Sequence record: NC_049813.1
Reading direction: 5' to 3' (one strand)
Origin: Escherichia phage vB_EcoS-12210I
DNA: 44,219 nt
The translations under genes and the position numbers were made by a program. This document shows positions 2,190 through 44,219 of this stretch, piece by piece. Positions within the stretch are counted from its first letter, which is position 1; each line of letters begins with the position of its first letter. Under the pieces are notes generated by a model. It was not told the DNA's origin and did not search any database. It worked only from the letters and a program-made list of their open reading frames with translations.

Positions 2190-2360
2190 TAGTTACGTTT
2201 CTTGGCATCTCAGCCCAGCCATAGCTCAATGTAACCATCGTGTATATCGTGTATATCATTTATTGCTAATGGTGCATTGGTATAGCTGTCGCGCAATACT
2301 GTATAAATCCACATGATATTAAAATTATAACCGGAACACTCTATAGAAGTAGTTACATGA

Positions 2361-2427
2361 TATACACAGTAATATATATAATAATAATAATAAGAGTAAA
2401 AGGTTGATATATATAGATATTTTAATG
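2361..2427. repeat. AT-rich repeat copy A with (ATA)4 tract; about 90 percent identical to 29409-29483
   Basis: Shared TATACACAGTA..(ATA)n..GTAAAAGGTTGATATATATAGATATT. Confidence 0.8.
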
Positions 2428-2501
2428 TAACTAATGCGTAAATTGGCGTAACAGCGCGTATATCATTTTTCGCGGATGAGATTGCATACATCGAGTTACA
2501 T

Positions 2502-2517
2502 CGGTTACGTGTAACCG
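2502..2517. promoter_or_regulatory. Perfect inverted repeat CGGTTAC-GT-GTAACCG
   Basis: 7-bp arms, 2-bp spacer, in the control region upstream of the 2752 regulator gene. Confidence 0.4.
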
Positions 2518-2540: not shown

Positions 2541-2560
2541 AAATAGCACTAATTGCTAAA
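2541..2560 (+). promoter_or_regulatory. Promoter-like element copy b
   Basis: AAATAGCACTAATTGCTAAA followed 20 bp later by TATTAA. Confidence 0.5.
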
Positions 2561-2751: not shown

Positions 2752-3081
2752 ATGAGAATGACAAGCACAAGAAAAAAGGTAATTGATTGCATACTACACT
2801 GCACTGAAGGATGCGATAGGTACAGCCCTACCGCGGATGATGTATCTAGATTGACAGGAATCCAAAGGGCTAACGCAAGGAGGACCTTGCTTGAACTTGA
2901 ATCTTATGGGGTTGTTGAAAGGGTTGAAGTTGCCTCTTACTACTCAGTCTCAAGGCGTATTGACATAAAAAGAAAATGTACAGGATGGAATGTTACAGGC
3001 AAAAAACCAGAGCCAATAGAGAGATTGAAGCTGTCTCAGGATGATGCTGATAAATTGATTAATAAAATTTTTGGCGGTTAA
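2752..3081 (+). CDS. Putative winged-helix DNA-binding regulator, 109 aa
   Basis: GGAGGA RBS; HTH-like segment SPTADDVSRLTGIQRANARRTLLELESYGVV. Confidence 0.5.
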   Translation: MRMTSTRKKVIDCILHCTEGCDRYSPTADDVSRLTGIQRANARRTLLELESYGVVERVEVASYYSVSRRIDIKRKCTGWNVTGKKPEPIERLKLSQDDADKLINKIFGG

Positions 3082-3730
3082 AATGAATATCAAGCCATTT
3101 AAAGATACCAACGTTGCCATGATGAGCACCAAAGAGATCGCGGGGTTAACTGGTAAAGAACATAATAAGGTAATTCGTGATGCCAAGGAAATGATCAATG
3201 ATTTGATACATTATAACAACTCCTCATACTTAAGGAGTGAGGATTATCAAGTACTTACAGATAATTTAGGCTATACATCAGAGATTTTACTTAACAAGGA
3301 ACTTACAGAAACGCTAATAACTGGCTACAGCGTCATTCTTCGTCACAGAGTTATCCGTCGACTTCATGAGCTTGAGGCGTTAGTTAAAAAACAAGCAGAA
3401 GTAATCAGCCAGATGGTAAGCATTAATGAACTTAAAGAGGTTCGAATGATGCTTGGTGTGGCTAATGCGCAGAATGCACACCTGAGCCAGCGCATTGTTG
3501 CAGAGCAAAGAATAAATGAGATCTTACTCATGGATAAGAGTACCGATGAAAAACTAGACATGCTGGCTTGTGAGGCTCGCCAGTGTTGGGCTAGTCGTTC
3601 TGATGAGATGGAGGAAAGATTTAAGTATGAAGCCCAATGCTTCGCCCTTAAAGAAAAGAATGATGCGCTGACTGGATTGATTGAGAATAATCTCGGAATT
3701 GACATTAAGCTGCTGCTGGAAAAGAAATAG
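3071..3730 (+). CDS. Rha-family phage regulatory protein (putative)
   Basis: N-terminal MSTKEIAGLTGKEHNKVIRDAKEM resembles the Rha/pRha motif; coiled-coil-like C-terminus. Confidence 0.5.
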   Translation: MAVKMNIKPFKDTNVAMMSTKEIAGLTGKEHNKVIRDAKEMINDLIHYNNSSYLRSEDYQVLTDNLGYTSEILLNKELTETLITGYSVILRHRVIRRLHELEALVKKQAEVISQMVSINELKEVRMMLGVANAQNAHLSQRIVAEQRINEILLMDKSTDEKLDMLACEARQCWASRSDEMEERFKYEAQCFALKEKNDALTGLIENNLGIDIKLLLEKK

Positions 3731-3786
3731 CACTAATTGCTAAACACTGATCGCAAGGATGCGATACTATTACTCCATCGAAACGA
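3725..3786 (+). promoter_or_regulatory. Promoter-like module copy c: element 3725-3744, TACTAT 3765-3770, start region CATCGAAACGA 3776-3786
   Basis: Full module geometry; overlaps the stop of the Rha-like gene. Confidence 0.6.
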
Positions 3787-9024: not shown

Positions 9025-9763
9025 AAATTACATCCTCTGGTAAATCCTTGTGGCGAACAATTCGCACAGTGCGCTCCCTCCAGTAATCGGAGTAGATATC
9101 AACGGAACTCATTTTACCATAAAGGTGATGAATGAATCTGTTATTGCCAATGTAGATTCCGGCGTGGTTTGTCACCTCACTTTGCACCTGCATCATAATC
9201 ATGGAACCAATCGGAATATCTGAAGTTTTTACCAGCTCAAATCCTTCCTTAATCCAGTTGTCATCATAGATATTTTCATTGTACCGCTTCTCCCACCACG
9301 GGTAATTAACGCGGTAGTCATTCAGTTTGACGCCGTATTTCTTATGGAATGCCATTACCAACTCCCAGCAATCAAAGCTACCAAGCCCCCACGGGCGACC
9401 AATCAGTGGCATCGTTGATGGCTCAAGAATACGCATATCTCCCTCCGGGATGCTTACAATAACATACGGAATCTCGCACTCATTGCAGCTACAGATATCC
9501 GCTGGGCTTGGTCTTGTTGTTGCTCCATCGCCCGTGTGGGAGTGAACTACGTAAACAATGGACTCATTATCCGCTAGGTTGAATGCGACACTAGCATACT
9601 CATTTGAATCAAGGAGGAATTCATTCTCTGGGTCTTTGCTGGCGTTGGTGATTCTGTGATACTTCTGAGCGCGACCCTTTTGTGTGACAACTCCGCAGCA
9701 TTCATGCGGGTAATCCTCTTTTGCGTGCTGAAAGATTTCAAGTTTAACTTTTGGTGTTAACAT
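9005..9763 (-). CDS. Tail assembly protein K-like (MPN/JAB plus NlpC/P60 domains)
   Basis: JAMM-like HSHTGDGATTRPSPAD and Cys/His peptidase residues (DCWELV...H). Confidence 0.75.
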   Translation of the reverse strand: MLTPKVKLEIFQHAKEDYPHECCGVVTQKGRAQKYHRITNASKDPENEFLLDSNEYASVAFNLADNESIVYVVHSHTGDGATTRPSPADICSCNECEIPYVIVSIPEGDMRILEPSTMPLIGRPWGLGSFDCWELVMAFHKKYGVKLNDYRVNYPWWEKRYNENIYDDNWIKEGFELVKTSDIPIGSMIMMQVQSEVTNHAGIYIGNNRFIHHLYGKMSSVDIYSDYWRERTVRIVRHKDLPEDVIYDSEAD

Positions 9764-19226: not shown

Positions 19227-20315
19227 TTATTTCTTAATTTTAGCTAAACGAGCACGCGGGTCTAATTTCTTAGGCTCATCGGCGCTGTCATATTTGTCGG
19301 AAGCGGTAGTCGCTTTACGTATTTCAGCCATTTTATCAGATTCTTTGGCAATGTCGAACGCTGCGTCGATGTATGCGTCAGACTTCTCGGAAACATCAAG
19401 GCCGGAGACTTCTTTAACGTAAGCAACTTTAATGCCTTTAGCATCCATACCGTCAGCCTTAACACCAGCTTCAGCAGCAACAGCAACCAGGGCGGCAAGG
19501 GCATCAGCGTCAGCTTTCGCTTTAGCCACGGCAGCTTCGATTTCAGCAGGCATTGCATCTACCTTGGCTTTCAGTGCATCGCGCTCAGCGATTGCGGTGT
19601 CAGCCTTTGCGTTCAGTGCTTCGATGTGAGAGGCGATTTCCGGGGCGACCTCAAATTCCTGCGCGCCGTCGAGTTTAATTTTAACTGTCATTTCATGTTT
19701 ATCCTCTTTATTGATATCAACGTCAGTAGTATACGGGTTTTCCTGCTCACCGTCCATATTCAATTTGGCAATACCTGCGCGACCTCTATACACCATTGCG
19801 AGATGGTTCACTTTAATGTCACGCTGAATTGCGTCGAACTCCTGCCATCCTTCTGGCGCATCGAATTGATCACCATCAGATTTAAGGACGTACTCGCCAG
19901 TAATGGGGTCGCCCCAGCCAGGGGTTTCGTCAAGAATTGCATAGTAACCAACGGATAACTCCTTGGCGTTACCTGCCATAGCTTCCTGAATGGCTGTGTT
20001 ATCGTAAACAACAATCGGAGCAACCACTGAGCTACCCAATGGCTCAGCTTTGCCAGTAACGGAACCTACCACTACCTCTTTAGCGTTCTCTGAGTTAACG
20101 AAAACATGATCAAGAGTCATTGGCTTACCCTGGTAACTAGCGAGGGATTCATCCTTGAAGACTTCCTCGGCTGGGCGAAACTCTCGAACCGTTCGACCGT
20201 CTTCCATGTAGTAGACTTGCACGCCTAGGCGTGCGACTACTGGTGTGTCGACTAGAAATCCATTCTCGTCGATTGTCGCCTTGAACTTTGCGCTGTCATA
20301 GCGGATTTTGCTCAT
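19227..20315 (-). CDS. Putative prohead scaffold (possible protease-scaffold fusion)
   Basis: C-terminal Ala/Lys/Glu/Asp-rich helical region typical of scaffolds; position. Confidence 0.5.
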   Translation of the reverse strand: MSKIRYDSAKFKATIDENGFLVDTPVVARLGVQVYYMEDGRTVREFRPAEEVFKDESLASYQGKPMTLDHVFVNSENAKEVVVGSVTGKAEPLGSSVVAPIVVYDNTAIQEAMAGNAKELSVGYYAILDETPGWGDPITGEYVLKSDGDQFDAPEGWQEFDAIQRDIKVNHLAMVYRGRAGIAKLNMDGEQENPYTTDVDINKEDKHEMTVKIKLDGAQEFEVAPEIASHIEALNAKADTAIAERDALKAKVDAMPAEIEAAVAKAKADADALAALVAVAAEAGVKADGMDAKGIKVAYVKEVSGLDVSEKSDAYIDAAFDIAKESDKMAEIRKATTASDKYDSADEPKKLDPRARLAKIKK

Positions 20316-24738: not shown

Positions 24739-24816
24739 TGGCGCTCCGCACTGGATTCGAACCAGTAACCTACGACTTAGAAGGTCGTTGCTACTATCCT
24801 ATTGAGCTAGCAGAGC
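24739..24816 (-). tRNA. tRNA-Arg (anticodon UCU), CCA encoded
   Basis: Manual cloverleaf: acceptor GCTCTGC/GCGGAGC (one G-U), T arm ACTGG-TTCGAAT-CCAGT, anticodon stem ACGAC/GTCGT with loop CUUCUAA, 5-nt variable loop; D stem weak. Confidence 0.8.
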
Positions 24817-25566: not shown

Positions 25567-25612
25567 ATTATATGCCATCCATGGCGACTGCGTTGAGCAA
25601 TTCGTGCTATTT
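25567..25612 (-). promoter_or_regulatory. Promoter-like module copy e: element 25593-25612, TATAAT 25567-25572
   Basis: Element and hexamer with 20-bp spacer. Confidence 0.55.
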
Positions 25613-25750
25613 ATAGAATGACTTAACAAAAGCCTCTGGCGTCACACCTTGTTTGTAAGGCTTAATTAAATCCTTAATGATGAACCGGTTGAATGTTTTC
25701 ATATCAAAGACCAGTCTTTCACATGCGATTACGTATTCAGTGAAGCTCAT
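25607..25750 (-). CDS. Hypothetical small protein, 47 aa
   Basis: GGGAGGAG RBS; ATGA overlap with upstream ORF; below the track length cutoff. Confidence 0.4.
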   Translation of the reverse strand: MSFTEYVIACERLVFDMKTFNRFIIKDLIKPYKQGVTPEAFVKSFYK

Positions 25751-25872
25751 TGTTTCTCCTCCCGTTGCATCCAAATTTGCGCAAGCTCGTAGTAAGCCAT
25801 CACCTCTTCGCTAGTTTTAGCTTCGTCCTGCATTCGCTTGCACCACTCTGCTGGGCTTTCTTGTGCTTCCAT
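25747..25872 (-). CDS. Hypothetical small protein, 41 aa
   Basis: AAGGTGA RBS; ATGA coupling to the next ORF. Confidence 0.35.
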   Translation of the reverse strand: MEAQESPAEWCKRMQDEAKTSEEVMAYYELAQIWMQREEKQ

Positions 25873-25923
25873 GATGAATCACCTTGCTTAAATTATCGTT
25901 CGTTAGAATGCGTTTTAGGCGCG

Positions 25924-26367
25924 TTAAATCTTATTCAATTGCTCAAGAATTTCGTATGCTAGCTCTCTGGCCTGCTCTTCGGTTAAGTGAATGGTGTGAA
26001 CCTGTGGCTCTTCGCGCATCCCGCACGCCTGGGCAATGATGAATGTTGCGTAGCCGTCAAAGTGGTTGGCCTGGAGCTTTGGCTCTGATTGGGAGAATCG
26101 AAGTGACTCAGCTCTCGCCTTGCACTGACTCATCATCATGTCAAATGTTGGATCTTTATCCATCTCTTTAACCTCTTTCCATTGCCAAAGTATACCATTT
26201 AATGGAACTCGTTCTCCAACCTTAAACTTTGGCTCACCATCATTAGAAGGGCAATCGTTGGTGTCTTTGGTTATAATAAACTCCCCATCTTCAGAGGCGA
26301 GGCCATATACTACCTGACCAATAGAAACTGAATCAGTGTAACTTCCTGTGCAAATAAACTTAGTCAT
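25924..26367 (-). CDS. Hypothetical protein, 147 aa
   Basis: ORF with GAGATGAGG leader/RBS downstream of a promoter-like module. Confidence 0.5.
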   Translation of the reverse strand: MTKFICTGSYTDSVSIGQVVYGLASEDGEFIITKDTNDCPSNDGEPKFKVGERVPLNGILWQWKEVKEMDKDPTFDMMMSQCKARAESLRFSQSEPKLQANHFDGYATFIIAQACGMREEPQVHTIHLTEEQARELAYEILEQLNKI

Positions 26368-26398
26368 TATTGTAACCTCATCTCGTTTCGGTAGGGTA

Positions 26399-26444
26399 AC
26401 TATAATAAATTACCCCAATACTGTTTTAGGAATTCGTGCTATTT
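26399..26444 (-). promoter_or_regulatory. Promoter-like module copy f: element 26425-26444, TATAGT 26399-26404
   Basis: Element and hexamer with 20-bp spacer. Confidence 0.55.
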
Positions 26445-26586
26445 AGCATTCTTTGACAACTTCACACCACTTAATAGTTCCCCCAAGAACCCTCTGCTGA
26501 TCAAATGCTTTATGAAACCCCTCGCACACTCGAACATGCTTAACGCTATTAAACTTACCAGTGTAGTACGTATGGATGTAAATCAT
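26443..26586 (-). CDS. Hypothetical small protein, 47 aa
   Basis: ATGA overlap with upstream gene; 3-prime end overlaps promoter element f. Confidence 0.3.
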   Translation of the reverse strand: MIYIHTYYTGKFNSVKHVRVCEGFHKAFDQQRVLGGTIKWCEVVKEC

Positions 26587-26810
26587 TTCTTAGTCGCCTT
26601 ATCCAAGTTAGTGAGGTATGCGGCATTAACGATAAGCGCCTCGTACTGGCGTGATGATTCGAAGTCACTGACGTCGAATTGCTGATTATTAATCTGTGCG
26701 CGAATCTCATCTACCGCTTTGCGCTGGCTATCACTTCGTGTTGGCATGAATGAATTAATCATCGACTTCAGTTCTGCTGCTTGCTTGTCTGACAGGTTAA
26801 TAGTAATCAT
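26583..26810 (-). CDS. Hypothetical protein, 75 aa
   Basis: GAGAGGATAG RBS. Confidence 0.45.
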   Translation of the reverse strand: MITINLSDKQAAELKSMINSFMPTRSDSQRKAVDEIRAQINNQQFDVSDFESSRQYEALIVNAAYLTNLDKATKK

Positions 26811-26839
26811 TTTCTATCCTCTCGCTTTGTGTGAACCAA

Positions 26840-26885
26840 CTATAACAAAACCCGCCGTAGCTGGTTAGGCAAAAAGTGCTATTTA
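26840..26885 (-). promoter_or_regulatory. Promoter-like module copy g: element 26866-26885, TATAGT 26840-26845
   Basis: Element and hexamer with 20-bp spacer. Confidence 0.5.
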
Positions 26886-27139
26886 CCAACCTGAATTGAT
26901 TTAGACGATTCATGAATCATCTTCTGCCCGTAAAGCTCTTTAGCCCTCCGCAATGAATCAATCGAGTCATTAAGATCAGTAAGGTAATCTTTGTGACCAC
27001 GCAGACCAGTGCAAAGCATCTTCTTTATTGCATGCTGCGTTGCTGGGTCAGATACACCAAACGCATCAAGAACGCGATAAACATCCACTGTTGTTACCGT
27101 GCCATCAATGCCAATAATTTCACGATTGTACTTACTCAT
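26879..27139 (-). CDS. Hypothetical protein, 86 aa
   Basis: ORF in early block. Confidence 0.45.
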   Translation of the reverse strand: MSKYNREIIGIDGTVTTVDVYRVLDAFGVSDPATQHAIKKMLCTGLRGHKDYLTDLNDSIDSLRRAKELYGQKMIHESSKSIQVGK

Positions 27140-27289
27140 ATATCAATCCTCGTTATTGTGCCGCCATGCGTCTTAAGCATGAGCTTTGCGTACTTTTCGT
27201 CTACATAGTGCAGGAGCATATCAATACCCCTGCTGCTGAATTTATGTTCGTATATCGTCACTTAACTTACACTCGCGTGGTTGGTGTGG

Positions 27290-27337
27290 GGATTATACCA
27301 GTCAGGATGAATCCCATTTTAGCAAAAAGTGCTATCT
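27290..27337 (-). promoter_or_regulatory. Promoter-like module copy h: element 27318-27337, TATAAT 27290-27295
   Basis: Element and hexamer with 22-bp spacer. Confidence 0.5.
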
Positions 27338-27550
27338 GATAACCCCGTACTTAACCGCGTTGGCGAGGGTAACATACTGCTTAGCCGTCAGCGTTGAGTG
27401 AAAGGTGAAGATTCCGGCCTGGACACCCTTAACCAGCGATTCAGGCTTGATCCCTGAAATGTTGATGATCCCGAGACCGCCAACAGTGCGAAGAACCACT
27501 CCGGAAACCACACAAAACTCGACACCATTACTATTCGTATATACCTGCAT
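27332..27550 (-). CDS. Hypothetical protein, 72 aa
   Basis: ORF in early block. Confidence 0.45.
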   Translation of the reverse strand: MQVYTNSNGVEFCVVSGVVLRTVGGLGIINISGIKPESLVKGVQAGIFTFHSTLTAKQYVTLANAVKYGVIR

Positions 27551-27563
27551 TATAATTTCTCCT

Positions 27564-27773
27564 TCATTGCCTCTCCGCCTCGTCTGCTGCCAGGATTAAT
27601 GCCGCCGCCAGTTTGCGGGCTTGATCAGAGCTGTATCGCATAATCGCCTGGCTGTCTCCATTGTCGTCAGGATCGAAATCCAGATACACAAACGTTCCTT
27701 GAGCGCCGCTACCTATACTTACCTCGGCCTGATCAAAGCACTGATCTTCTACTCGAACAGCTTCCATATTCAT
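27564..27773 (-). CDS. Small strongly acidic protein, about 69 aa (starts MNMEAV)
   Basis: AGAGGAAA RBS; about 14 Asp/Glu versus 5 Lys/Arg. Confidence 0.5.
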   Translation of the reverse strand: MNMEAVRVEDQCFDQAEVSIGSGAQGTFVYLDFDPDDNGDSQAIMRYSSDQARKLAAALILAADEAERQ

Positions 27774-27797
27774 TTCCTCTTTGTTTTCGATGGGGTA

Positions 27798-27843
27798 ATC
27801 ATAGCTGACTACCCGATCCATTGTTTAGCAATTCGTGCTATTT
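27798..27843 (-). promoter_or_regulatory. Promoter-like module copy i: element 27824-27843, TATGAT 27798-27803
   Basis: Element and hexamer with 20-bp spacer; CATCGAAAACA start region. Confidence 0.55.
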
Positions 27844-29131: not shown

Positions 29132-29408
29132 GTTGATACCTCGTTTCGTTTACTTCGTTTCAGTGATTGCCATCTTGCCACTTGTTTACGTGTCGGTCAA
29201 CGTATTTTTATGTCTATTCCATCGCGGATACGTTTTTTCGGCCTCCAAGGCAGCGTCAGCACTGGTTGTAAACGTGCCGTATCCCCTGTGTACCGTTTTT
29301 GGGAGTGCTTTCCTATATATGCGCCTTTTTATTCCTACAATGTCATCCCATTCTGACAAGTGTCAGAATATCTGCGCGGAACATATCAATTATCCAATCA
29401 ATTATCGG

Positions 29409-29483
29409 TATACACAGTATACATATATATAATAATAATAATAATAATAAAGTAAAAGGTTGATATATATAGATATTATATTG
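29409..29483. repeat. AT-rich repeat copy B with (ATA)6 tract; partner at 2361-2427
   Basis: Same flanks as copy A, longer trinucleotide run. Confidence 0.8.
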
Positions 29484-29679
29484 TATATCGTGCGTATATC
29501 TCGCGTAAAAAACGTAGGTTAGTGGTAACTAACTTTTGTGACGACACTTGGTATACGATGGTTACTCGTATATCTCAAGAATGGCTCACCAAGAATGAAA
29601 ATCAACTTGTATGGTAGTCAATCCATCTTTCATTCACTCACCCACCACTTCATTTCACTTTTCGCAACAATCAAAAACA

Positions 29680-29752
29680 TCATTGCATCAGAAGCAATAT
29701 TGCTGTATGTGCAATAATCATGTGAATCATTGCAATATCTGCAACAATGCAT
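29680..29752. promoter_or_regulatory. Cluster of TGCAA-containing palindromes (AGCAATATTGCT, ATTGCAAT and others)
   Basis: 6-7 TGCAA/TTGCA copies in about 70 bp upstream of the plus-strand early operon. Confidence 0.45.
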
Positions 29753-29761
29753 AAATCTGAC

Positions 29762-29809
29762 GAATAGCGCTTTTTGCTAAAGACATTATGAGTTAGCGAG
29801 GCTATAGTT
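29762..29809 (+). promoter_or_regulatory. Promoter-like module copy j: element 29762-29781, TATAGT 29804-29809
   Basis: Element and hexamer with 22-bp spacer; start region CATCAAAAACGAGG. Confidence 0.5.
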
Positions 29810-29835
29810 AGCTCATCAAAAACGAGGAGATAGAA

Positions 29836-30015
29836 ATGAAGATTGATAAAGATGAACTTCGTAACGAATGCGCACTGATTGGGCTTAACGAAGATTACAC
29901 AGACCTTGTGTTGCGCGGAAAGTTGGACATTAACTTGGCTAAGCAATTCCAGTCAGAGGATGAATTCCTGTGCTGTGATGGACTTGGATGCGTTGAATGT
30001 TTACCATTTATTTGA
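29836..30015 (+). CDS. Hypothetical Cys-rich small protein, 59 aa
   Basis: GAGGAG RBS; C-terminal CCDGLGCVEC; below track cutoff. Confidence 0.45.
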   Translation: MKIDKDELRNECALIGLNEDYTDLVLRGKLDINLAKQFQSEDEFLCCDGLGCVECLPFI

Positions 30016-30265: not shown

Positions 30266-30426
30266 TGCTATTACCATCTGAGATAAATTATTTCGATCTT
30301 GAGGTCATAAGTGCCTACAGCGGCAAGGGTTGGCCTTGCGGTGACTGGTTTAATGAGGACCTACTGGATTCTCACGAGATTATGCTCAAGGCGATAGAAA
30401 AAGCACGAAATAGCACGAATTGCTAA
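30262..30426 (+). CDS. Hypothetical small protein, 54 aa
   Basis: ATGA-type overlap with upstream gene; 3-prime end overlaps promoter element k. Confidence 0.3.
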   Translation: MMLLPSEINYFDLEVISAYSGKGWPCGDWFNEDLLDSHEIMLKAIEKARNSTNC

Positions 30427-31068: not shown

Positions 31069-32652
31069 ATGTTCGATTTCAACGAAGATAAACTATCTGT
31101 TGAACAGGTTATGGCAATTGCTGCCGCAGAAAACCTCCCGCCCCTGCGCGTCGCCATTAATGCTAATGGCTATCGCCAGTCTCAATCATTCTGGAAAGCA
31201 CCAGTCGAGATTGATGCAGCTAATGACAAGTATCCAGTAATCTCACTAGGTAATGACATTGATGTTGTTGGTAAGCTGTCAGCTAATATTGCCCGTTCTG
31301 TTCAGTTCCCTGAGTCGTCAGCTTACATGCACTTCCTGGGGTGTATTTCCGCTGCAATGCTGGGTCGATTTACTGTTGAGTATCACGGAACGCAGCAACC
31401 GACTTCGCTGTACGTCGTAACGAGTCAGCCACCATCGACGGGTAAATCAGCAATCAACTCACTTTCAATTGCTCCAATGATTGCTGAGACTGAGCGACTA
31501 AATAAAGTGAGAAAGCGTGAGCGCAAGAAAATTATGGCAAAACTATCTGAATTATCCAAAGAGATGAAGCAGGAAAAATCTCCGTCAGAGATGGCTTCAC
31601 TTTTTGAGGAGAAAGAGGAACTAGAGGAAAAACTCGAGAAACTATGTGATATCGTTTTCCCTGTGTCAGATACCACACCGGAAGGACTTGCGCGAATAAA
31701 CAACCGCCAGGGCAGCTTTGCTGTAATATCAGATGAAGCAACCAGCGTCAACTCACTGCTTGGTATGACCTATGGTGATGGTTCGAAGAAAACGAACAGC
31801 GAGCTTGTGCTGAAGGCCTGGGATGCTGGTAACGTGTCAATTGCGCGTGCTAACGCAGAAAACAATATGAGCTTTGTTGCTATGGGTTGCATCTCTGTAA
31901 TTGCACAGGATGAAACAATCAATGCGATCATGAACGCTGGCGCGCGTGGTATCGGTGTATCTGAACGTTTCCTGCTTGTACGTGAAAAGTCATTCCTGGG
32001 CGAGCGTGTGTTTGTTGATGAAAATGGTGAGTCAACTTACGAACCGATAGATGGTGAGCTTAAGGCTAACTACTTCCGTCTGGTTCATGAAATCATGAAT
32101 GAACAAGAAGTTAAGTTGACAGTTAGTAATTCAGCAATGAAATATCTCAACCGCGCGCGTCAGGAGATGGAACCGCACCTTGCTGACGGCGGGAAGTATT
32201 CACACACAATGTTGCGAGGCGCGTTGGGTAAGTTCGATAAGCAGGCAATCAGGATTGCGGCGGTTCTTCACACTGTGCGTAACTGGTTCAACCCAAATGG
32301 CGGTAGCCCTCAGAAGTCGAGAGAAATTGAGCTTGATACAATGCAGGAAGCTGTAATTATGTTCCAGGAACTTAGCAAGACTTATTTGTCATCCGCTAAC
32401 GCCGCGGGTCACGCTGGCGACAATGCAGAGATGAATAAGCTGATTGATATCCTGATTAAGCAAGGCAAAAACGGGAAAGGAGTAGTAGGTATTCGTTCGC
32501 TATATGAAGCGGCTCGCAAGGTTAAGCCGTTCGAGGCTCAAGCGGGAGTAATGACGAAGATTAAAGACCACTTGCTGCCAATGCTTGATGAGAAAAACTA
32601 CACGTGCCTGATTGGTGATAAAGTTTACATTAATCCACGACTATTGGGGTGA
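31069..32652 (+). CDS. P-loop NTPase, putative replication-associated protein, 527 aa
   Basis: Walker A-like QPPSTGKS and Walker B-like AVISDEA; termini shared with the 140-aa paralogue. Confidence 0.55.
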   Translation: MFDFNEDKLSVEQVMAIAAAENLPPLRVAINANGYRQSQSFWKAPVEIDAANDKYPVISLGNDIDVVGKLSANIARSVQFPESSAYMHFLGCISAAMLGRFTVEYHGTQQPTSLYVVTSQPPSTGKSAINSLSIAPMIAETERLNKVRKRERKKIMAKLSELSKEMKQEKSPSEMASLFEEKEELEEKLEKLCDIVFPVSDTTPEGLARINNRQGSFAVISDEATSVNSLLGMTYGDGSKKTNSELVLKAWDAGNVSIARANAENNMSFVAMGCISVIAQDETINAIMNAGARGIGVSERFLLVREKSFLGERVFVDENGESTYEPIDGELKANYFRLVHEIMNEQEVKLTVSNSAMKYLNRARQEMEPHLADGGKYSHTMLRGALGKFDKQAIRIAAVLHTVRNWFNPNGGSPQKSREIELDTMQEAVIMFQELSKTYLSSANAAGHAGDNAEMNKLIDILIKQGKNGKGVVGIRSLYEAARKVKPFEAQAGVMTKIKDHLLPMLDEKNYTCLIGDKVYINPRLLG

Positions 32653-32991: not shown

Positions 32992-33051
32992 ATAGCACTT
33001 TTTGTTAAAAGCCCCTTGTGGGCTTTTGTTATTATTAATTCATCGAAACGA
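32990..33051 (+). promoter_or_regulatory. Promoter-like module copy l: element 32990-33009, TATTAT 33030-33035, start region CATCGAAACGA 33041-33051
   Basis: Full module geometry; a hairpin (33009-33025) sits inside the spacer. Confidence 0.55.
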
Positions 33052-33072
33052 TAGACAGGAAAGGAAAACAAA

Positions 33073-33150
33073 ATGGTTAAGTTCTTCGCTGGTATGCTGA
33101 CTGCTGTTGCAATCATGGATAACGTAGCTATTTATCTTGGCGTGTACTGA
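33073..33150 (+). CDS. Small hydrophobic peptide, 25 aa
   Basis: AGGAAAGGAAAA RBS; MVKFFAGMLTAVAIMDNVAIYLGVY. Confidence 0.35.
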   Translation: MVKFFAGMLTAVAIMDNVAIYLGVY

Positions 33151-33209
33151 TAGCACAAATTGCTAAATAAAAGAAAAACAAAAAGAGCATAGTTACTTCA
33201 TAGAAAACA
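33150..33209 (+). promoter_or_regulatory. Promoter-like module copy m: element 33150-33167, CATAGT 33188-33193, start region CATAGAAAACA
   Basis: Module geometry with a variant start region. Confidence 0.5.
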
Positions 33210-37077: not shown

Positions 37078-37123
37078 ATAATACACCACCCCACCGATTC
37101 ATCTTTAGCAATTAGTGCTATTT
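37078..37123 (-). promoter_or_regulatory. Promoter-like module copy o: element 37104-37123, TATTAT 37078-37083
   Basis: Element and hexamer with 20-bp spacer; start region CATCGAAACGAAACGA. Confidence 0.6.
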
Positions 37124-37537
37124 TGAAATCATTTCTCTAAATGCAGCAAGAAAACCCTCGCGACCGTACGCCACGGCAGCGAAGCCGCCTGACTCTCTTA
37201 CGCTTTTAAGGAAGGACTTCTGCTCGTTACTGACTGGACTAGCCTGGGTTTTTCCTGCCCTCTTTAGCTCTATGGCTCCGAAAGGGTACTTTCCTCTGAT
37301 AGATTCGGGAATAAGAAACATACAGTCTGATACGCCTTTGAGAAGCCCTTTAGCCTGGTCCTTTCTTGCTTGACCAATGGTTTTTTTGCCCTCATTCACG
37401 CAGTGGAAAAATACCATCTCTGGATAGTTATACTTAACCCAATCAGAGCAAAAGATTTGTTCGTCATCCTCTTTCGGACACGACTTAACCGGTCCAGAGT
37501 AAAACTCAATGTAATCAAATTTGTCTGTAATGTTCAT
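37118..37537 (-). CDS. VRR-NUC family nuclease (putative)
   Basis: PD-(D/E)xK-like GVSDCMFLI...GAIELKRAG. Confidence 0.5.
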   Translation of the reverse strand: MNITDKFDYIEFYSGPVKSCPKEDDEQIFCSDWVKYNYPEMVFFHCVNEGKKTIGQARKDQAKGLLKGVSDCMFLIPESIRGKYPFGAIELKRAGKTQASPVSNEQKSFLKSVRESGGFAAVAYGREGFLAAFREMISK

Positions 37538-39528
37538 AACAATTCTCCAAAATTCTTAAAAGCTATTATATCCTTTCCTTTGCCATTCTTGCGGTGTGTC
37601 ACCTGGACTGGCGCACGAAACTTATCTGCGTTAGTCATAATCATTCTTGCATTCTTCAGTCTGCCAATTCGTGCTGCTTCAGCGCGATTTTCAATGTGAG
37701 CAAGGCAAAAGTTTTTCCAAAGCACACTACAAACCCTATGGTCAGATTCTGGATTGAAGAACTCCCAAGCGTTAAATCTTTCTCCGTTGTGGGCCATGAT
37801 ATTGTACTTAACTACAATGCCCGTTTGATTCTTGCTTAAACCAACTTGAAAATCATAAACCCGCAAATAGTCTCCGCGACGATACATCTTTCCAGTCAGG
37901 TTAGCGTTTGGGTCTTTAAGCATTTCTCCGCATTCACGACAAACTTTTGCTGCTATGTCATTTTTAGTTCCACAACCTTTCTTGATTACCGCCTTTGTTT
38001 GTTGGTCGGTAATATCATCACATGTTGTGAACTGGAAAAAGTGATCGCATCTAACGCCATTAATCTTATTGCTACAGCGTCTAGCAAATGGCGAGTTCTC
38101 ATATCCACATTGCGGACACTGGCGAACCTCATCACCACCTTTTCTTGAGGATTTAAACTTCTCAGCCTGAATCTCCTCAATTATTGGGTCAAAGTAAAGC
38201 TCTGCCATGTCATCAAGCGCTCCGGCAAAGTCTAATACCAAGTGGTCCTCCTTCTTGAACCCAGCATCTATGTGCGCCTTTTTTAGTTTTCGCATGCCAC
38301 GACCAAGAAGCTGAATCATTAAGGTTAGACTGCCAATCTTGCGTAGTATGACGCTAGTATCCCACAGCGGTTGGTTTACGCCCGTGGTTAGACATCCAAT
38401 CTGAAAGATAATCTTGTACTTTCCAGTCTGGCAATCTGCAAGAATCTCTCTGCGCCTCCTCTCTCCGGTAGAATCGGTGATAATGGCGTAAGGGTATCCA
38501 TCCGGCAATGCCGCAGCAGCCTCATCACAATGGAGTTTTCCAGCGCAGGTGACCAATGCGGCGTTGCGAGTCTCCAGTATTTTGACGACAAACTGCATTA
38601 TCTTTTGTGTCATGGTTTGGTTGTCGTGAATCTTTGCGGCCATTGCATCCATTTCTTTTCTGCTAAAGTCTTTCACGCCATCACTACCGTCTGGAACAAA
38701 CTCGCTAAGGTCATAACCCAAATCGCCAACCTCGCCATAAACAGTAGGAACCACGAATCCCAAATCAACAAGGTAATTTGTTGGAACCTGAATCACAGTT
38801 TTTCGCCAGAACCCACGGATATTTGGATTGCTAACGACGATATGATCATTGTTTCGATAAGGGCTACCAGTAAGGCCGAATATACGAAGCTCCCGCCCGT
38901 ATTTTTCACGGCAGCGACGCTTCATCTCAGTGATTATTAGCGTGTACTGCGCACGACCAGTACCAAGCAATCCAGTATTAACGCCATCCTTAAAAACCAT
39001 CTCGCCTTTCTTTGTGCTCATTTGCTCAAATGTTTCTTCATTCTCTTCGGCTTCCACGATATCCATGTGATCGACCATGTGACACTCATCGATTGCGATA
39101 ACAGCCGGAACATAGTCACCAAGCCCCTTAAATAAGCCGTTAGCTGCCGTGCCCTCACTGGCAACTATGGTTGGGTAATAAACTGATTTAACGTTAAGCC
39201 CGGCGCAATAGACGCTATTACGGATGCCAAGATTGCGAAGCTCTTCTGAGTTCTGGCTGATTATCTCTGACTGGCGAGAAAGCACCATATAAGGAAGACC
39301 AAGCTGCTCCATACGCTTACCAATCATAGCGAGAATGATTGTCTTACCAGCCGATACGGAAAGGTCTGCGATAAATGGCGCCTCATACTTGCCAATAGCC
39401 TTCCCAATTGCGTCAAATGTAACGCACTGGAATTCGTAAGGGGTTATCTCGCCAAACTGGTAATCTTTCTGAATCTGCTTGATTCTTTCTTTATCGAAGT
39501 TTGCAACCAGCTTCTCGATAGGCAACAT
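37534..39528 (-). CDS. DExH-box ATP-dependent helicase with C-terminal zinc-ribbon motifs
   Basis: Walker A SAGKT, DECH box, several CxxC pairs near the C-terminus. Confidence 0.7.
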   Translation of the reverse strand: MLPIEKLVANFDKERIKQIQKDYQFGEITPYEFQCVTFDAIGKAIGKYEAPFIADLSVSAGKTIILAMIGKRMEQLGLPYMVLSRQSEIISQNSEELRNLGIRNSVYCAGLNVKSVYYPTIVASEGTAANGLFKGLGDYVPAVIAIDECHMVDHMDIVEAEENEETFEQMSTKKGEMVFKDGVNTGLLGTGRAQYTLIITEMKRRCREKYGRELRIFGLTGSPYRNNDHIVVSNPNIRGFWRKTVIQVPTNYLVDLGFVVPTVYGEVGDLGYDLSEFVPDGSDGVKDFSRKEMDAMAAKIHDNQTMTQKIMQFVVKILETRNAALVTCAGKLHCDEAAAALPDGYPYAIITDSTGERRRREILADCQTGKYKIIFQIGCLTTGVNQPLWDTSVILRKIGSLTLMIQLLGRGMRKLKKAHIDAGFKKEDHLVLDFAGALDDMAELYFDPIIEEIQAEKFKSSRKGGDEVRQCPQCGYENSPFARRCSNKINGVRCDHFFQFTTCDDITDQQTKAVIKKGCGTKNDIAAKVCRECGEMLKDPNANLTGKMYRRGDYLRVYDFQVGLSKNQTGIVVKYNIMAHNGERFNAWEFFNPESDHRVCSVLWKNFCLAHIENRAEAARIGRLKNARMIMTNADKFRAPVQVTHRKNGKGKDIIAFKNFGELL

Positions 39529-39629
39529 ATCTAAATTCCTATAAAAATTGTCTTGTAGCGTTTAATTGAGTACAATAATACCATCAAATCAGTATGACTT
39601 TTAACAAAAAATGCTATTGAGGTAATGAA

Positions 39630-40103
39630 ATGAATGCAGTAGACAAGCGAACCATTAACGGCAATAACGGAACCATCCGCACTGAAGATAAAAAGCAGCG
39701 AAAACGACCTTCAGGTTACTACGTTTTAAAAGATGAAGTAAGAGCGGGTTTACGTGCGCGGCTGGAAATTGTTCTTGATTTCTTCGGCACAAAGGCAAAT
39801 ATGGCAAAGCAATTAAAGGTAACACCACAGGCTGTAGAAGAATGGTTTAAGCGCGGCATGATGTCGGCGCGTGGTGCTCAGCTTTCGCACAACTACTATA
39901 AGCGAAATGGAGAAGGTTTTCGCGCAACATTCTGCCGACCAGACTTGCAATTCGACGGCAACGGCAAGCCGCTGACACTTCGGTGCAAAAAACGCCACAT
40001 GCTTCGCGTGGTTACCGAGGCTGAATTAGCCACCAAGCCAGAGTGTCGGTCCTGGCGCAAAATTAAGGCCGCTAACGAAGCAGCACGGAAAGCTAAAGAG
40101 TAA
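39630..40103 (+). CDS. Putative HTH DNA-binding protein, 157 aa
   Basis: GAGG RBS; HTH-like KANMAKQLKVTPQAVEEWFKRG. Confidence 0.45.
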   Translation: MNAVDKRTINGNNGTIRTEDKKQRKRPSGYYVLKDEVRAGLRARLEIVLDFFGTKANMAKQLKVTPQAVEEWFKRGMMSARGAQLSHNYYKRNGEGFRATFCRPDLQFDGNGKPLTLRCKKRHMLRVVTEAELATKPECRSWRKIKAANEAARKAKE

Positions 40104-40106
40104 GGG

Positions 40107-40152
40107 AAATAGCACTAATTGATAAACAGTGGCGCTATGCATTGTGTATAGT
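40107..40152 (+). promoter_or_regulatory. Promoter-like module copy p: element 40107-40126, TATAGT 40147-40152
   Basis: Element and hexamer with 20-bp spacer. Confidence 0.55.
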
Positions 40153-40178
40153 GCCTTTATTGTTTATGGAGGGTGTAT

Positions 40179-41105
40179 ATGAATTATCATGACAAAAATG
40201 AAGTGATAGCTAAAATGAAAGGGATGTGGGGTGAGTTCTACTTGTCTCATTTGGGATGGACCAGAGAAAATCTTAGCAAGAAGCATGGGCCATGCCCGAA
40301 TTGTGGAGGTCGTGATAGGTTTAGATTCACTGATGAGTTAGGTCAAGAAAAGGGAAATGGAGCAGCAATATGCAACCAGTGCGGCAATGATTCTGGTGTT
40401 GGTTGGGTCATGAAGTGTTCCGGAATGAGTTATAGTGAAACAATAGATACGCTTGGTGATTGGCTAAATCTCGTTCCAGTAGAGGTTATATCAAAAGCAA
40501 ACAAAAGAGCATCTCGTACATCACCATACAAAATGGGCGCTCAGATTGACCATGAAAGATGCTTAGAGATAATGGAAAGGACGGAGAGGGTAGAATCAAC
40601 TCCACTCAGCATATATGAGGGTATCTATAGCGAGTTTGGCTTTGATGTTGGCAGAACAAAATCAGGCGAAATAATACACGCAATACCGTGTTTTATGGCT
40701 TATAGTGACGGCATATCGGAAGAAATGTGCAATGTAATGTTTATAAATGAAGATGGAGATGTTAGTTATGCTGCAAAAGATTACACTCGCCAATCTGTCG
40801 CTGTTATTGGTGCCTTTAAAAGTGATGAGTACGCTTATCTTGTGGATAATTGGATTGATGGTATTCGTGTTCATCTTGCTACTGGTAACCGCTGTGTACT
40901 TGTTTGCCACTCTAGCTACAATATGGAGATGGTTGCTTATGCGCTTAGGAACCACAAGCTGAGAGTGGCTTGTACTCGCCACGATTTTGATTTACTCGCC
41001 GTTGCTGATGATCGCAATCTTGATGTTGTAATGCCAAATGATGATAATTTTTTCAAGTCAGGAATAAGAAAGCGCATATACAAGGCAAGCGAATTACTAG
41101 ACTAA
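40179..41105 (+). CDS. DNA primase (zinc-ribbon type)
   Basis: GGAGGG RBS; CPNCGG...C..C zinc-binding motif near the N-terminus. Confidence 0.65.
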   Translation: MNYHDKNEVIAKMKGMWGEFYLSHLGWTRENLSKKHGPCPNCGGRDRFRFTDELGQEKGNGAAICNQCGNDSGVGWVMKCSGMSYSETIDTLGDWLNLVPVEVISKANKRASRTSPYKMGAQIDHERCLEIMERTERVESTPLSIYEGIYSEFGFDVGRTKSGEIIHAIPCFMAYSDGISEEMCNVMFINEDGDVSYAAKDYTRQSVAVIGAFKSDEYAYLVDNWIDGIRVHLATGNRCVLVCHSSYNMEMVAYALRNHKLRVACTRHDFDLLAVADDRNLDVVMPNDDNFFKSGIRKRIYKASELLD

Positions 41106-43595: not shown

Positions 43596-44021
43596 TCAGA
43601 ATGGGATGTCGTCCTCGAAGTTCTGTTGCTGCTGAGGTTGCTGTTGCCGCTGAGGTTGCTGTTGCCGCTGAGGTTGATGTTGCTGTTGCTGCGGTGCTGA
43701 ATCACCACGCTGACTAAACTCAAGTCGCGGATTGTTCATGTTAATGGTTACGTAAGTCTTACCATCTTTATCCCTAACATCTACAGCCAAACTTTCAGCG
43801 CTAACACTAACAACTTTACCTTCTTGAAATGCATCATTGTACCAATCTAACATAGATTCTTTAGCGAAGAAGACGGCGCGATAGTTACTATACTGATTCT
43901 GCCCATCTTTATCCTTATATCGCTCACTCAAATCAACTGCGAACATTTTCCAGCTACCATTAGCATTCTGACCTTCCTTAGTGAATGGGGCGCGTCGAAT
44001 CTGACCAGTAATTACGTGCAT
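43596..44021 (-). CDS. ssb: Single-stranded DNA-binding protein
   Basis: C-terminal acidic tail ending DDIPF preceded by a Gln/Pro-rich linker. Confidence 0.85.
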   Translation of the reverse strand: MHVITGQIRRAPFTKEGQNANGSWKMFAVDLSERYKDKDGQNQYSNYRAVFFAKESMLDWYNDAFQEGKVVSVSAESLAVDVRDKDGKTYVTINMNNPRLEFSQRGDSAPQQQQHQPQRQQQPQRQQQPQQQQNFEDDIPF

Positions 44022-44062: not shown

Positions 44063-44219
44063 TTAGAATGTGTCGATTTGTTTTGATTCTACTTTAATCT
44101 TTTCTTCAGGACTACTTTTTTCTGCAACTTTCTTTGGTGCTGCTGGGTTGAAGCCAGTTGCTGCATTTGCTTCAATCTCTGCCTTTCGCTCTATGATGTG
44201 GGGTTCGAAAACCTTCCAT
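44063..44219 (-). CDS. 3-prime part of the ERF-like gene (same gene as 1-621; 44093-44219 duplicates 1-127)
   Basis: Frame continuity across the junction; TAA at 44063-44065. Confidence 0.5.
   Translation of the reverse strand, partial: WKVFEPHIIERKAEIEANAATGFNPAAPKKVAEKSSPEEKIKVESKQIDTF
44093..44219. repeat. Terminal overlap copy (identical to 1-127)
   Basis: Direct comparison. Confidence 0.9.

Follow-up and report, generated by a model that had tools for sequence, protein, structure and literature searches.

The 44,219-nt genome of Escherichia phage vB_EcoS-12210I (NC_049813.1), which we analysed over its whole length and refer to as the window, carries two copies of an AT-rich repeat with an (AAT)n tract, one in each of two large non-coding regions from which blocks of genes diverge. 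vB_EcoS-12210I is a T1/Rtp-like coliphage (Drexlerviridae, Braunvirinae, Veterinaerplatzvirus), its sequence shows 100% identity with that of the Escherichia phage vB_EcoS series MK9072xx, and the gene order of this complete, circularly assembled genome agrees with that of Rtp and T1. Gene blocks diverge at three sites, namely region A, region B and a gap of 100 nt at 39529-39629, the last of which lacks the AT-repeat element. Delimited by the longest open reading frames (ORFs), region A occupies 2190-2751 and region B 29132-29836, and together they make up 2.9% of the genome sequence; the copy in region A lies directly upstream of recE/erf/ssb. Because the family profile of the leftward gene begins at ATG 2054, region A probably extends over 2055-2751, which at about 700 nt would give it a size like that of region B. 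We note that the longest version of this leftward, minus-strand ORF (1860-2189) starts at GTG 2189, that the short family profile (phrog_5247) spans residues 46-109 only, that a promoter-like TATATA..CATCGAAAGC lies within the ORF at 2099-2080, and that its true start is probably ATG 2054.

The duplicated module and its anatomy

Copy A (2361-2427) reads TATACACAGTA-ATATATAT-(AAT)4-AAGAGTAAAAGGTTGATATATATAGATATT and copy B (29409-29483) reads TATACACAGTATAC-ATATATAT-(AAT)6-AAAGTAAAAGGTTGATATATATAGATATT, with the two in direct orientation to each other, (AAT)4 at 2380-2391 and (AAT)6 at 29431-29448. The right halves of A and B are 97.7% identical across 44 nt, and the 21-mer GTAAAAGGTTGATATATATAG occurs solely at 2396 and 29452, even when 3 mismatches are allowed, and not at all in 100 shuffles. 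An earlier note made from the letters of the window alone had described these two copies, their 4 versus 6 trinucleotides and their position in the large non-coding gaps of gene divergence, all of which we confirm. The length of about 70 bp given there describes a real core, but the element itself is about three times longer: an nhmmer profile made of relatives' A and B copies matches 2311-2542 (E 8e-62) and 29368-29596 (E 6e-46), both on the plus strand and referred to here as modules A and B, and the same search returned no third significant copy in the window. The ~70-bp repeat is therefore the core of a non-coding module of ~200-230 bp that is present twice per genome. When 18 distinct copies are aligned, the common columns run from ATATACA via the AT-rich island and GCGTA units to TACGYGTAT. 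No homology was seen between the first gene to the left of region A and that to the left of region B, so the duplication concerns non-coding DNA only, and no similar DNA was found in plasmids (PLSDB) or E. coli genomes.

At the centre of each module is an island of 55-60 bp with 87-92% A+T. Island A (2368-2424, about 89% A+T) holds (AT)4 and (AAT)4, and island B (29425-29480, about 90% A+T) holds (AAT)6; the AAT tract has few phased A-tracts. When stability was computed from nearest-neighbour energies in 60-bp windows along the whole genome, the least stable window was 29422-29482 in island B (z=5.6) and the second least stable was 2370-2430 in island A (z=5.2), with the third-ranked at z 3.1. 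Each island also includes a perfect match to WATCAANNNNTTR, the consensus for integration host factor (IHF), in the form TATCAACCTTTTA on the minus strand at 2397-2409 in module A, where an AT-rich stretch lies 5' on the same strand, and at 29453-29465 in module B, which likewise has an AT-rich 5' flank. Perfect matches number four in the 44 kb, against three expected overall, and two of the four are those in the modules.

Short repeats bracket both islands, and their units, of the GTATATC and GTTACAT types, are oppositely oriented on the left and right of each. Left of island A, the inverted units TAGTTACAT-GATATACAC occupy 2350-2367 (minus strand), with GTGTATATC on the minus strand at 2359-2367. 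On the right (2425-2466, plus strand) lie ATGTAAC, GCGTAA, GCGTAAC and GCGTATATCAT with ~10-bp phasing, an arrangement present in all A copies, in which GCGTAA at 2436 and 2446 shows the 10-bp spacing and GCGTATATC follows at 2456. Perfect 9-nt inverted repeats link 2350-2358 with 2425-2433 and 2357-2365 with 2458-2466, and the TAGTTACAT and ATGATATAC of the left side recur across the island as perfect inverted repeats, in the form of ATGTAACTA and GTATATCAT. A distal left arm at 2229-2257 (plus strand) consists of ATGTAAC and then two tandem GTGTATATC units, exact at 2240 and 2249, and the arm 2221-2271 as a whole corresponds to the right arm 2417-2478, of which it is a direct copy that has diverged. 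Further to the right, at 2467-2516 (plus strand), is a distal conserved part with AGTTACAT (2494-2501, repeated) and the palindrome GGTTACGTGTAACC, kept through Rogunavirinae. Island B is bracketed on the left by the inverted units GGTATACAC and GTATACAT (29407-29424, minus strand; 29407-29415 with 1 mismatch) and on the right by TTGTATATC, GCGTATATC and GCGTAA (29481-29508, plus strand), with another CGTATATCTC at 29567-29576.

Several other identities for these sequences were considered and rejected. An Rfam scan of the window for non-coding RNA gives only a tRNA at 24742-24816, and a terminator-like hairpin at 2502-2517 is absent as a conserved feature in Rtp, DTL and IME542. DNA folds of both strands of both modules gave z about 0 for a cruciform or single-strand initiation hairpin. 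For a DnaA-box origin, one-mismatch matches to TTATNCACA number 42 against 47 expected, with one 8/9 match per module, and a LexA box in the left flank has an unfit spacing as judged by eye.

Conservation and the (AAT)n tract

Copies in both regions are found in BEK1-1, A110b, T145P1, Msk, Rtp, IME542, TH27, AHP42 and a 44-kb metagenome contig, and a single copy (A or B) was recovered from about 20 more genome or metagenome fragments. The arrangement of two modules per genome extends across Braunvirinae, Rogunavirinae, Nouzillyvirus and Tempevirinae and, in the form of AT islands, to T1. Within region A, identity over the block 2341-2513 is >90% across Braunvirinae, Nouzillyvirus (TH27) and ESCO41 and ~80% in Rogunavirinae, and the block stays conserved while its right-hand neighbours are swapped for different gene cassettes among the phages. 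In T1 (Tunavirinae) and TLS (Tempevirinae) there is an AT island with flanking repeats at both sites and little primary-sequence similarity, and the islands of T1 contain no microsatellite. Low stability is nonetheless kept: in each of the eight complete family genomes examined, the two 60-bp windows of lowest stability coincide with the two modules (z 4.5-5.8; third at most 3.8), and this includes T1, without conserved primary sequence or microsatellite. The outgroup HK578 (Dhillonvirus), which has its own DNA polymerase and helicase-primase and hence a different replication module, has no comparable islands, its annotated divergent promoters included. The comparison across related phages that the earlier note had called for thus finds the element kept in both regions with a varying repeat number, and the absence from relatives that would have spoken against it was not observed.

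That the A and B copies evolve in concert within each lineage is seen from their lineage-specific cores, which the two have in common. The core common to A and B is AAAGGTTGATATATATAGATATT in the window, CCTTwTwATATAAGGAT in AHP42, and TTATTATATAGrkATwTAATTTTGTTCTTTTTGT in TLS (ending in TAATTTTGTTCTTTTTGT). In AHP42 the IHF consensus is replaced by the palindrome CCTTATTATATAAGG, and there is one change at a consensus position in Rtp B and TH27 B. Such a pattern suggests a common lineage-specific factor, or gene conversion between sites that are obliged to stay alike.

The number of AAT units differs between related phages. In about 40 copies among relatives, n is 2, 3, 4 or 5 in copy A, with a clear mode of 4, and 4, 6 or 7 in copy B, with a mode of 6; a shorter (AAT)n goes with a longer adjacent (AT)n, and the whole AT tract in A copies measures 17-24 nt in 1-nt steps. 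These 1-nt steps imply that there is neither strict helical phasing nor a fixed promoter spacer, and also that the ORF spanning module A (minus strand, 2210-2491, 93 aa) is not a gene, its frame being shifted by such steps in IME542, T145P1 and A110b. Among 41 near-clonal isolates there is no variation in tract length: region B is 100% identical and region A 99.8-100% identical, that is, identical or with one single-nucleotide polymorphism (SNP). In MK907232, the one isolate aligned, the lone difference in region A is a T/G SNP at 2663, outside the module. The listed near-clonal records are 44219 bp long bar one of 44091 bp, which is shorter by about one 127-bp assembly overlap. The suggestion that the microsatellite might vary by slippage accordingly holds between related phages (n=2 to 7) and fails within the near-clonal set; slippage is visible between species, not at the scale of a contingency locus. 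We infer that (AAT)n is part of a meltable island in which composition matters and exact length does not.

Candidate replication origins and alternative explanations

T1 is one of the original T phages, and, according to papers from 2020 and 2024, neither it nor the other T1-like phages have a known origin (PMC7718038, PMC11447400); in the literature that we searched we found no description of the twin module. We suggest that the two modules are the best current candidates for the replication origins of the T1 family. More specifically, there is in our judgement about an even chance that each copy is the core of a cis-acting unwinding module of ~200 bp of the kind found at origins of replication. 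Of the three candidates that the earlier note had put forward with due reserve (a replication origin, a divergent early promoter and a nucleoid-protein-binding element), an origin fits the architecture best, a promoter is possible on the strength of ordinary-scoring matches, and the perfect IHF consensus in both copies makes them candidate sites for a nucleoid protein.

In such an origin, the A+T island would act as the DNA-unwinding element, a phage initiator would bind the repeats flanking it, and host IHF would bend the DNA at its site within the island; the island would then melt, a helicase would be loaded on each side, and the phage primase and host DNA polymerase III would take over. 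Tract lengths that change in 1-nt steps suit an unwinding element and do not suit a promoter spacer or a phased contact, and the lineage-specific cores shared by A and B suggest one lineage-specific factor acting at both sites. An origin is also favoured by the concentration of short repeats around islands that are the least stable DNA of the genome: 7 of the 12 GTATATC heptamers of the genome fall within regions A and B, and in the two corresponding regions of other phages lie all 6 copies of a different word, TGTAACA, in T1 and all 5 TTCCGCGG copies in Rtp. The two copies may represent two origins or, as in the Bacillus phage SPP1, one firing origin and a second initiator-bound site, which could help the switch to recombination-dependent concatemer synthesis, a mode of replication long known for T1. 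It is conceivable, but to our minds rather unlikely, that labour is divided such that B is an early theta origin and A a fork-arresting or late-firing site that drives recombination-dependent concatemer synthesis, with the winged helix of the initiator reading the bracket repeats and the length of the island tuning melting.

The likeliest initiator would be the product of 31069-32652 (plus strand), a DUF3987 protein of 527 aa encoded in the rightward operon from region B, which we regard as the candidate trans-acting factor. It is an MCM-like AAA+ helicase with a C-terminal winged-helix region, matches the folds of MCM, Cch and SaPI5 PriRep, and would be self-loading. A PDB sequence search with this helicase and with the Cro-like protein encoded at 39630-40103 gave no match. 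The replication-type genes of the window that were scanned included none for a DnaB-type helicase or a loader, and the primase (40173-41105) has a zinc-ribbon primase domain. We note that the gene beside that of the primase (37534-39528, minus strand) encodes a RadD-like protein, a superfamily 2 repair helicase that has zinc ribbons and a tail weakly resembling ParB_C, and that, despite many annotations, this protein is unlikely to be the replicative helicase.

As a further test we turned to three distant phages (L040, L041 and L043) whose helicases are 34-40% identical to that of the window. In all three, A+T content along the locus is highest in a window (z 4.4-4.7) that falls within the gap just upstream of the helicase operon, and repeats adjoin this window. 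In L040 (helicase 34% identical; 9258-9621), G5-6/C5-6 units face one another across the island, TGGGGGGTAA and TTACCCCCCA among them, and perfect 10-nt inverted arms occur among the facing G5-6 units. The island locus of L041 has CCTTACCGGAA three times, and in L043 (helicase 40% identical; 1-64 and 373-394) the AT island upstream of the helicase gene holds (TAA)8. An inverted pair in L043, GTGTATAT..ATATACAC, recalls the GTGTATATC units of the window.

The layout of the modules resembles that of several characterized origins. In the origins of staphylococcal pathogenicity islands (SaPIs), an AT-rich centre has two or more short repeats (5-9 bp) on each side, those of the two sides pointing in opposite directions, and the SaPI Rep proteins are self-loading helicases that read these short repeats via a C-terminal winged helix (PMC9371898). 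At the level of sequence the modules likewise have an easily melted AT-rich centre with oppositely pointing short repeats on each side, TAGTTACAT and GATATACAC on the left and ATGTAACTA and GCGTATATCAT on the right in A, and GGTATACAC and GTATACAT on the left and TTGTATATC and GCGTATATC on the right in B, and the phage encodes an AAA+ helicase with a C-terminal winged-helix region. Unlike in SaPIs, the modules occur twice per genome, contain an IHF consensus inside the island and belong to a phage of a Gram-negative host; moreover, module B lies upstream of the helicase gene, as does the island just upstream in the distant relatives, whereas the SaPI origin is directly downstream of rep. Phage SPP1, a pac-type siphovirus of ~44 kb, has two similarly organised origins, oriL and oriR, with direct repeats as well as an AT-rich unwinding element, one of the two origins lying in a non-coding gap, and its second copy has been proposed to make forks stall and to set off recombination-dependent concatemer synthesis (PMC6316719, PMC3485210). 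The parallel extends to the place of copy A in the window, which abuts recE/erf/ssb. SPP1 differs in having a dedicated origin-binding protein, a loader and a DnaB-type helicase, and in that oriL lies inside the initiator gene; both modules of the window are intergenic, their repeats are shorter and form inverted brackets, and there is no sequence similarity. The iteron plasmid origins of pSC101 and R6K gamma share with the modules the order of an AT-rich region with an IHF site followed by phased direct repeats, but the units of the modules measure 7-10 bp rather than 17-22 bp, and the modules have no adjacent gene for a Rep-type initiator and no cluster of DnaA boxes.

A number of observations weigh against an origin. 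The case for it is built on sequence inference throughout. The repeat units are short (7-9 bp) and AT-rich, and the figures for their enrichment are uncorrected for regional composition and for the homology of A and B. Neither Rogunavirinae nor T1 retain the IHF consensus. The helicase of T1 is 42% identical to that of the window in its N-terminal part, 61% in the core and 54% in the C-terminal part, which gives no signal of a specificity domain. The distance to the helicase gene is 1.6 kb for module B, which is upstream of it, and 27 kb for module A, where a SaPI origin would be directly downstream. Cumulative GC skew, which the earlier note had suggested as a check, follows gene orientation only and is uninformative on an origin. 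Lastly, the position of both modules is precisely that expected of early promoters, the authors of the SPP1 work remark that transcriptional control regions are marked by AT islands as well (PMC6316719), and other annotators have placed in-silico promoters inside the module (in CEB_EC3a and AHP42).

These last points lead to the strongest alternative, that of back-to-back early promoters with operators, which we consider possible yet doubtful. Each island would then carry host sigma-70 promoters with UP-like AT-rich DNA, firing leftward and perhaps rightward, the flanking repeats would serve a phage regulator (such as the Cro-like protein) as operators, and IHF would modulate the promoters. 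Besides the position of both modules at divergence points and the predictions made independently by other annotators, we note that the operons directly left of the modules lack the 21-nt promoter-associated repeat of the family, so another promoter is needed there, and that there are very few consensus sigma-70 promoters elsewhere in the genome. A leftward -35 TTTACT with -10 TATATT or TATTAT recurs at the same relative place in seven modules (A and B of the window, Rtp and AHP42, and B of TLS; 7.4-9.8 bits), and a second leftward match, TTTACG-N17/18-TACAAT or TACACT, is found in window B and AHP42 A. These scores are ordinary, however, as there are 73 sites of at least 9 bits genome-wide and any AT tract of 60 nt yields -10-like hexamers; the -35/-10 spacing is unfixed owing to the 1-nt steps of the tract, such that the -10 would slide within the repeat; and no positionally conserved match exists in T1 or TLS A. 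What is conserved in A is a run of about 170 contiguous bases rather than two hexamers, other sites lie nearer the leftward genes as judged by eye (TTGGAC-N16-TATATA near 2121-2094 and TTGACC..TGgCAAGAT near 29206-29178), and the divergent promoter region of HK578 is without a comparable island. A search of the literature found no transcriptome of a Drexlerviridae (T1-like) phage. Promoters and an origin are also compatible with each other, and transcription could also activate an origin.

We regard as improbable the idea that the modules are purely architectural sites for nucleoid proteins (IHF, H-NS, Fis, or bent or flexible DNA) that organise the injected genome or silence or insulate operons. 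Both copies do have a perfect IHF consensus, and their extreme AT content is typical of H-NS targets. Against this, Rogunavirinae and T1 keep the island and flanking repeats but not the IHF consensus, and the lineage-specific cores of A and B argue for a phage-specific factor over a host protein.

No better a chance can be given to recognition of the modules in DNA packaging, whereby the small terminase would bind the phased repeats while IHF helps to bend the DNA, in the manner of lambda cosB or SPP1 pacL, and the cut would be made about 200 bp away. It is the case that repeated protein sites and an IHF site are the layout of lambda cosB (and similarly of SPP1 pac), and that the T1 and TLS records start in region B. 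Base 1 of the T1 record, in which a terminal repeat is annotated at 1-2800, aligns at about 29669 of the window, ~190 bp right of module B, and the TLS record begins at the homologous position, the pac end of TLS having been located by restriction digestion. However, this end falls in a different repeat zone, outside the island and the module: T1 base 1 is inside a zone of GCAACAATCA-type repeats, the GCAACAAT/CATTGCA zone (29650-29760, plus strand), which is conserved in T1, TLS and AHP42. In addition, the module is present twice, its two copies being equally conserved and A the better conserved of them, whereas work by Ramsay and Ritchie reportedly described a single pac for T1, and in the distant phages the island adjoins the helicase operon and not the terminase. 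The packaging site is thus probably a neighbour of module B and a separate element, it cannot explain module A, and the GCAACAAT/CATTGCA zone is a better candidate for pac than the AT island. The authors of work on SU57 also put pac in the untranslated region of region B (PMC7718038).

The remaining possibility, a phase-variable contingency microsatellite whose slippage would switch neighbouring genes, is largely refuted and hardly credible: trinucleotide copy number does differ between related phages, but it is constant among the 41 near-clonal isolates, the counts are strongly modal (A=4, B=6), the tracts are short (4-6 units) and outside any real ORF, the spanning minus-strand ORF being broken by the 1-nt differences of relatives, and T1 retains the island without the microsatellite. 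The TAAA tract of Neisseria nadA is a phase-variable promoter microsatellite (PMC2791445), and the likeness to it is that of a simple-sequence tract upstream of genes whose unit number differs between strains. Unlike the nadA tract, that of the modules is constant in the clonal set, has no fixed promoter geometry and is plain AT-rich DNA in T1.

Returning to replication origins, the analysis narrows the search in the T1 family to two sites of ~200 bp and one candidate initiator helicase, so that the question is now directly testable. If the modules were origins, they would belong to a known type, in which a self-loading helicase acts on an unwinding element with short repeats at its flanks; the design of short inverted repeats, AT island and self-loading MCM-like helicase would extend from staphylococcal islands to virulent coliphages, and the family would provide a second example of a twin-origin siphovirus after SPP1. 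Should the division of labour between B and A also prove true, this would be the first defined origin system of a classical T phage and a Gram-negative, virulent-phage counterpart of SaPI-type self-loading origins. If the modules were instead immediate-early promoters, they would still be the main control hubs of the family and useful for engineering. T1-like phages are common laboratory contaminants as well as candidates for therapy.

Neighbouring repeats and other features

The 21-nt promoter-associated repeat of the family has a copy directly right of module A (2543-2559, plus strand) and a counterpart right of B (29764-29780). It corresponds to the published TLS/T1 repeat, whose function is an open question (PMC11447400). 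The repeat, ATAGCACnnnTTGnTAA, is present in about 20 copies, nearly all along the direction of transcription (21 matches against 1.75 expected), with sites at 679-695, 2543-2559, 3727-3743, 25594-27841 (five), 29764-29780, 30410-30426, 32992-33166, 37105-37121, 40109-40125 and others. In aligned copies (3724, 30407 and 32989), TAnTAT and then CATCGAAACG follow ~22 nt on. The repeat holds inverted pentamers, TAGCA/TGCTA, and we rejected it as a sigma-54 promoter since its spacing is unfit, both points being judged by eye.

Between module A and the genes to its right, three TGACTACA..TGTAGTCA palindromes (2632-2723) overlap TTGACT-N17-TATATT at 2695-2723, which is the sole strong sigma-70-like promoter in region A. 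Downstream of them follow a winged-helix gene (2752-3081) and a Rha-family gene (3071-3730), and palindromes and genes together look like a clade-specific autoregulated cassette. The T/G difference of MK907232 at 2663 falls within this palindrome (operator) array.

Elsewhere in the window, bases 1-127 are duplicated exactly at 44093-44219, and this 127-bp terminal duplication is an assembler overlap of a circularly permuted genome and not a biological repeat. The tRNA gene at 24742-24816 (minus strand; Rfam, 57 bits) lies in an early-gene block upstream of the terminase genes, and a tRNA-Arg has been reported in SU57 and AHP-type relatives. We also note that GenBank MG065688, titled 'Campylobacter phage A110b', is 91% identical to vB_EcoS-12210I and contains both modules, and that the host given for it (Campylobacter) is probably a mislabel or contamination. 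Lastly, four copies of a tandem 18-nt repeat, GTTGCTGTTGCCGCTGAGGTTGCT, are found at 43619-43702 within the minus-strand ORF 43596-44021, and these are partly complementary to 19440-19514.

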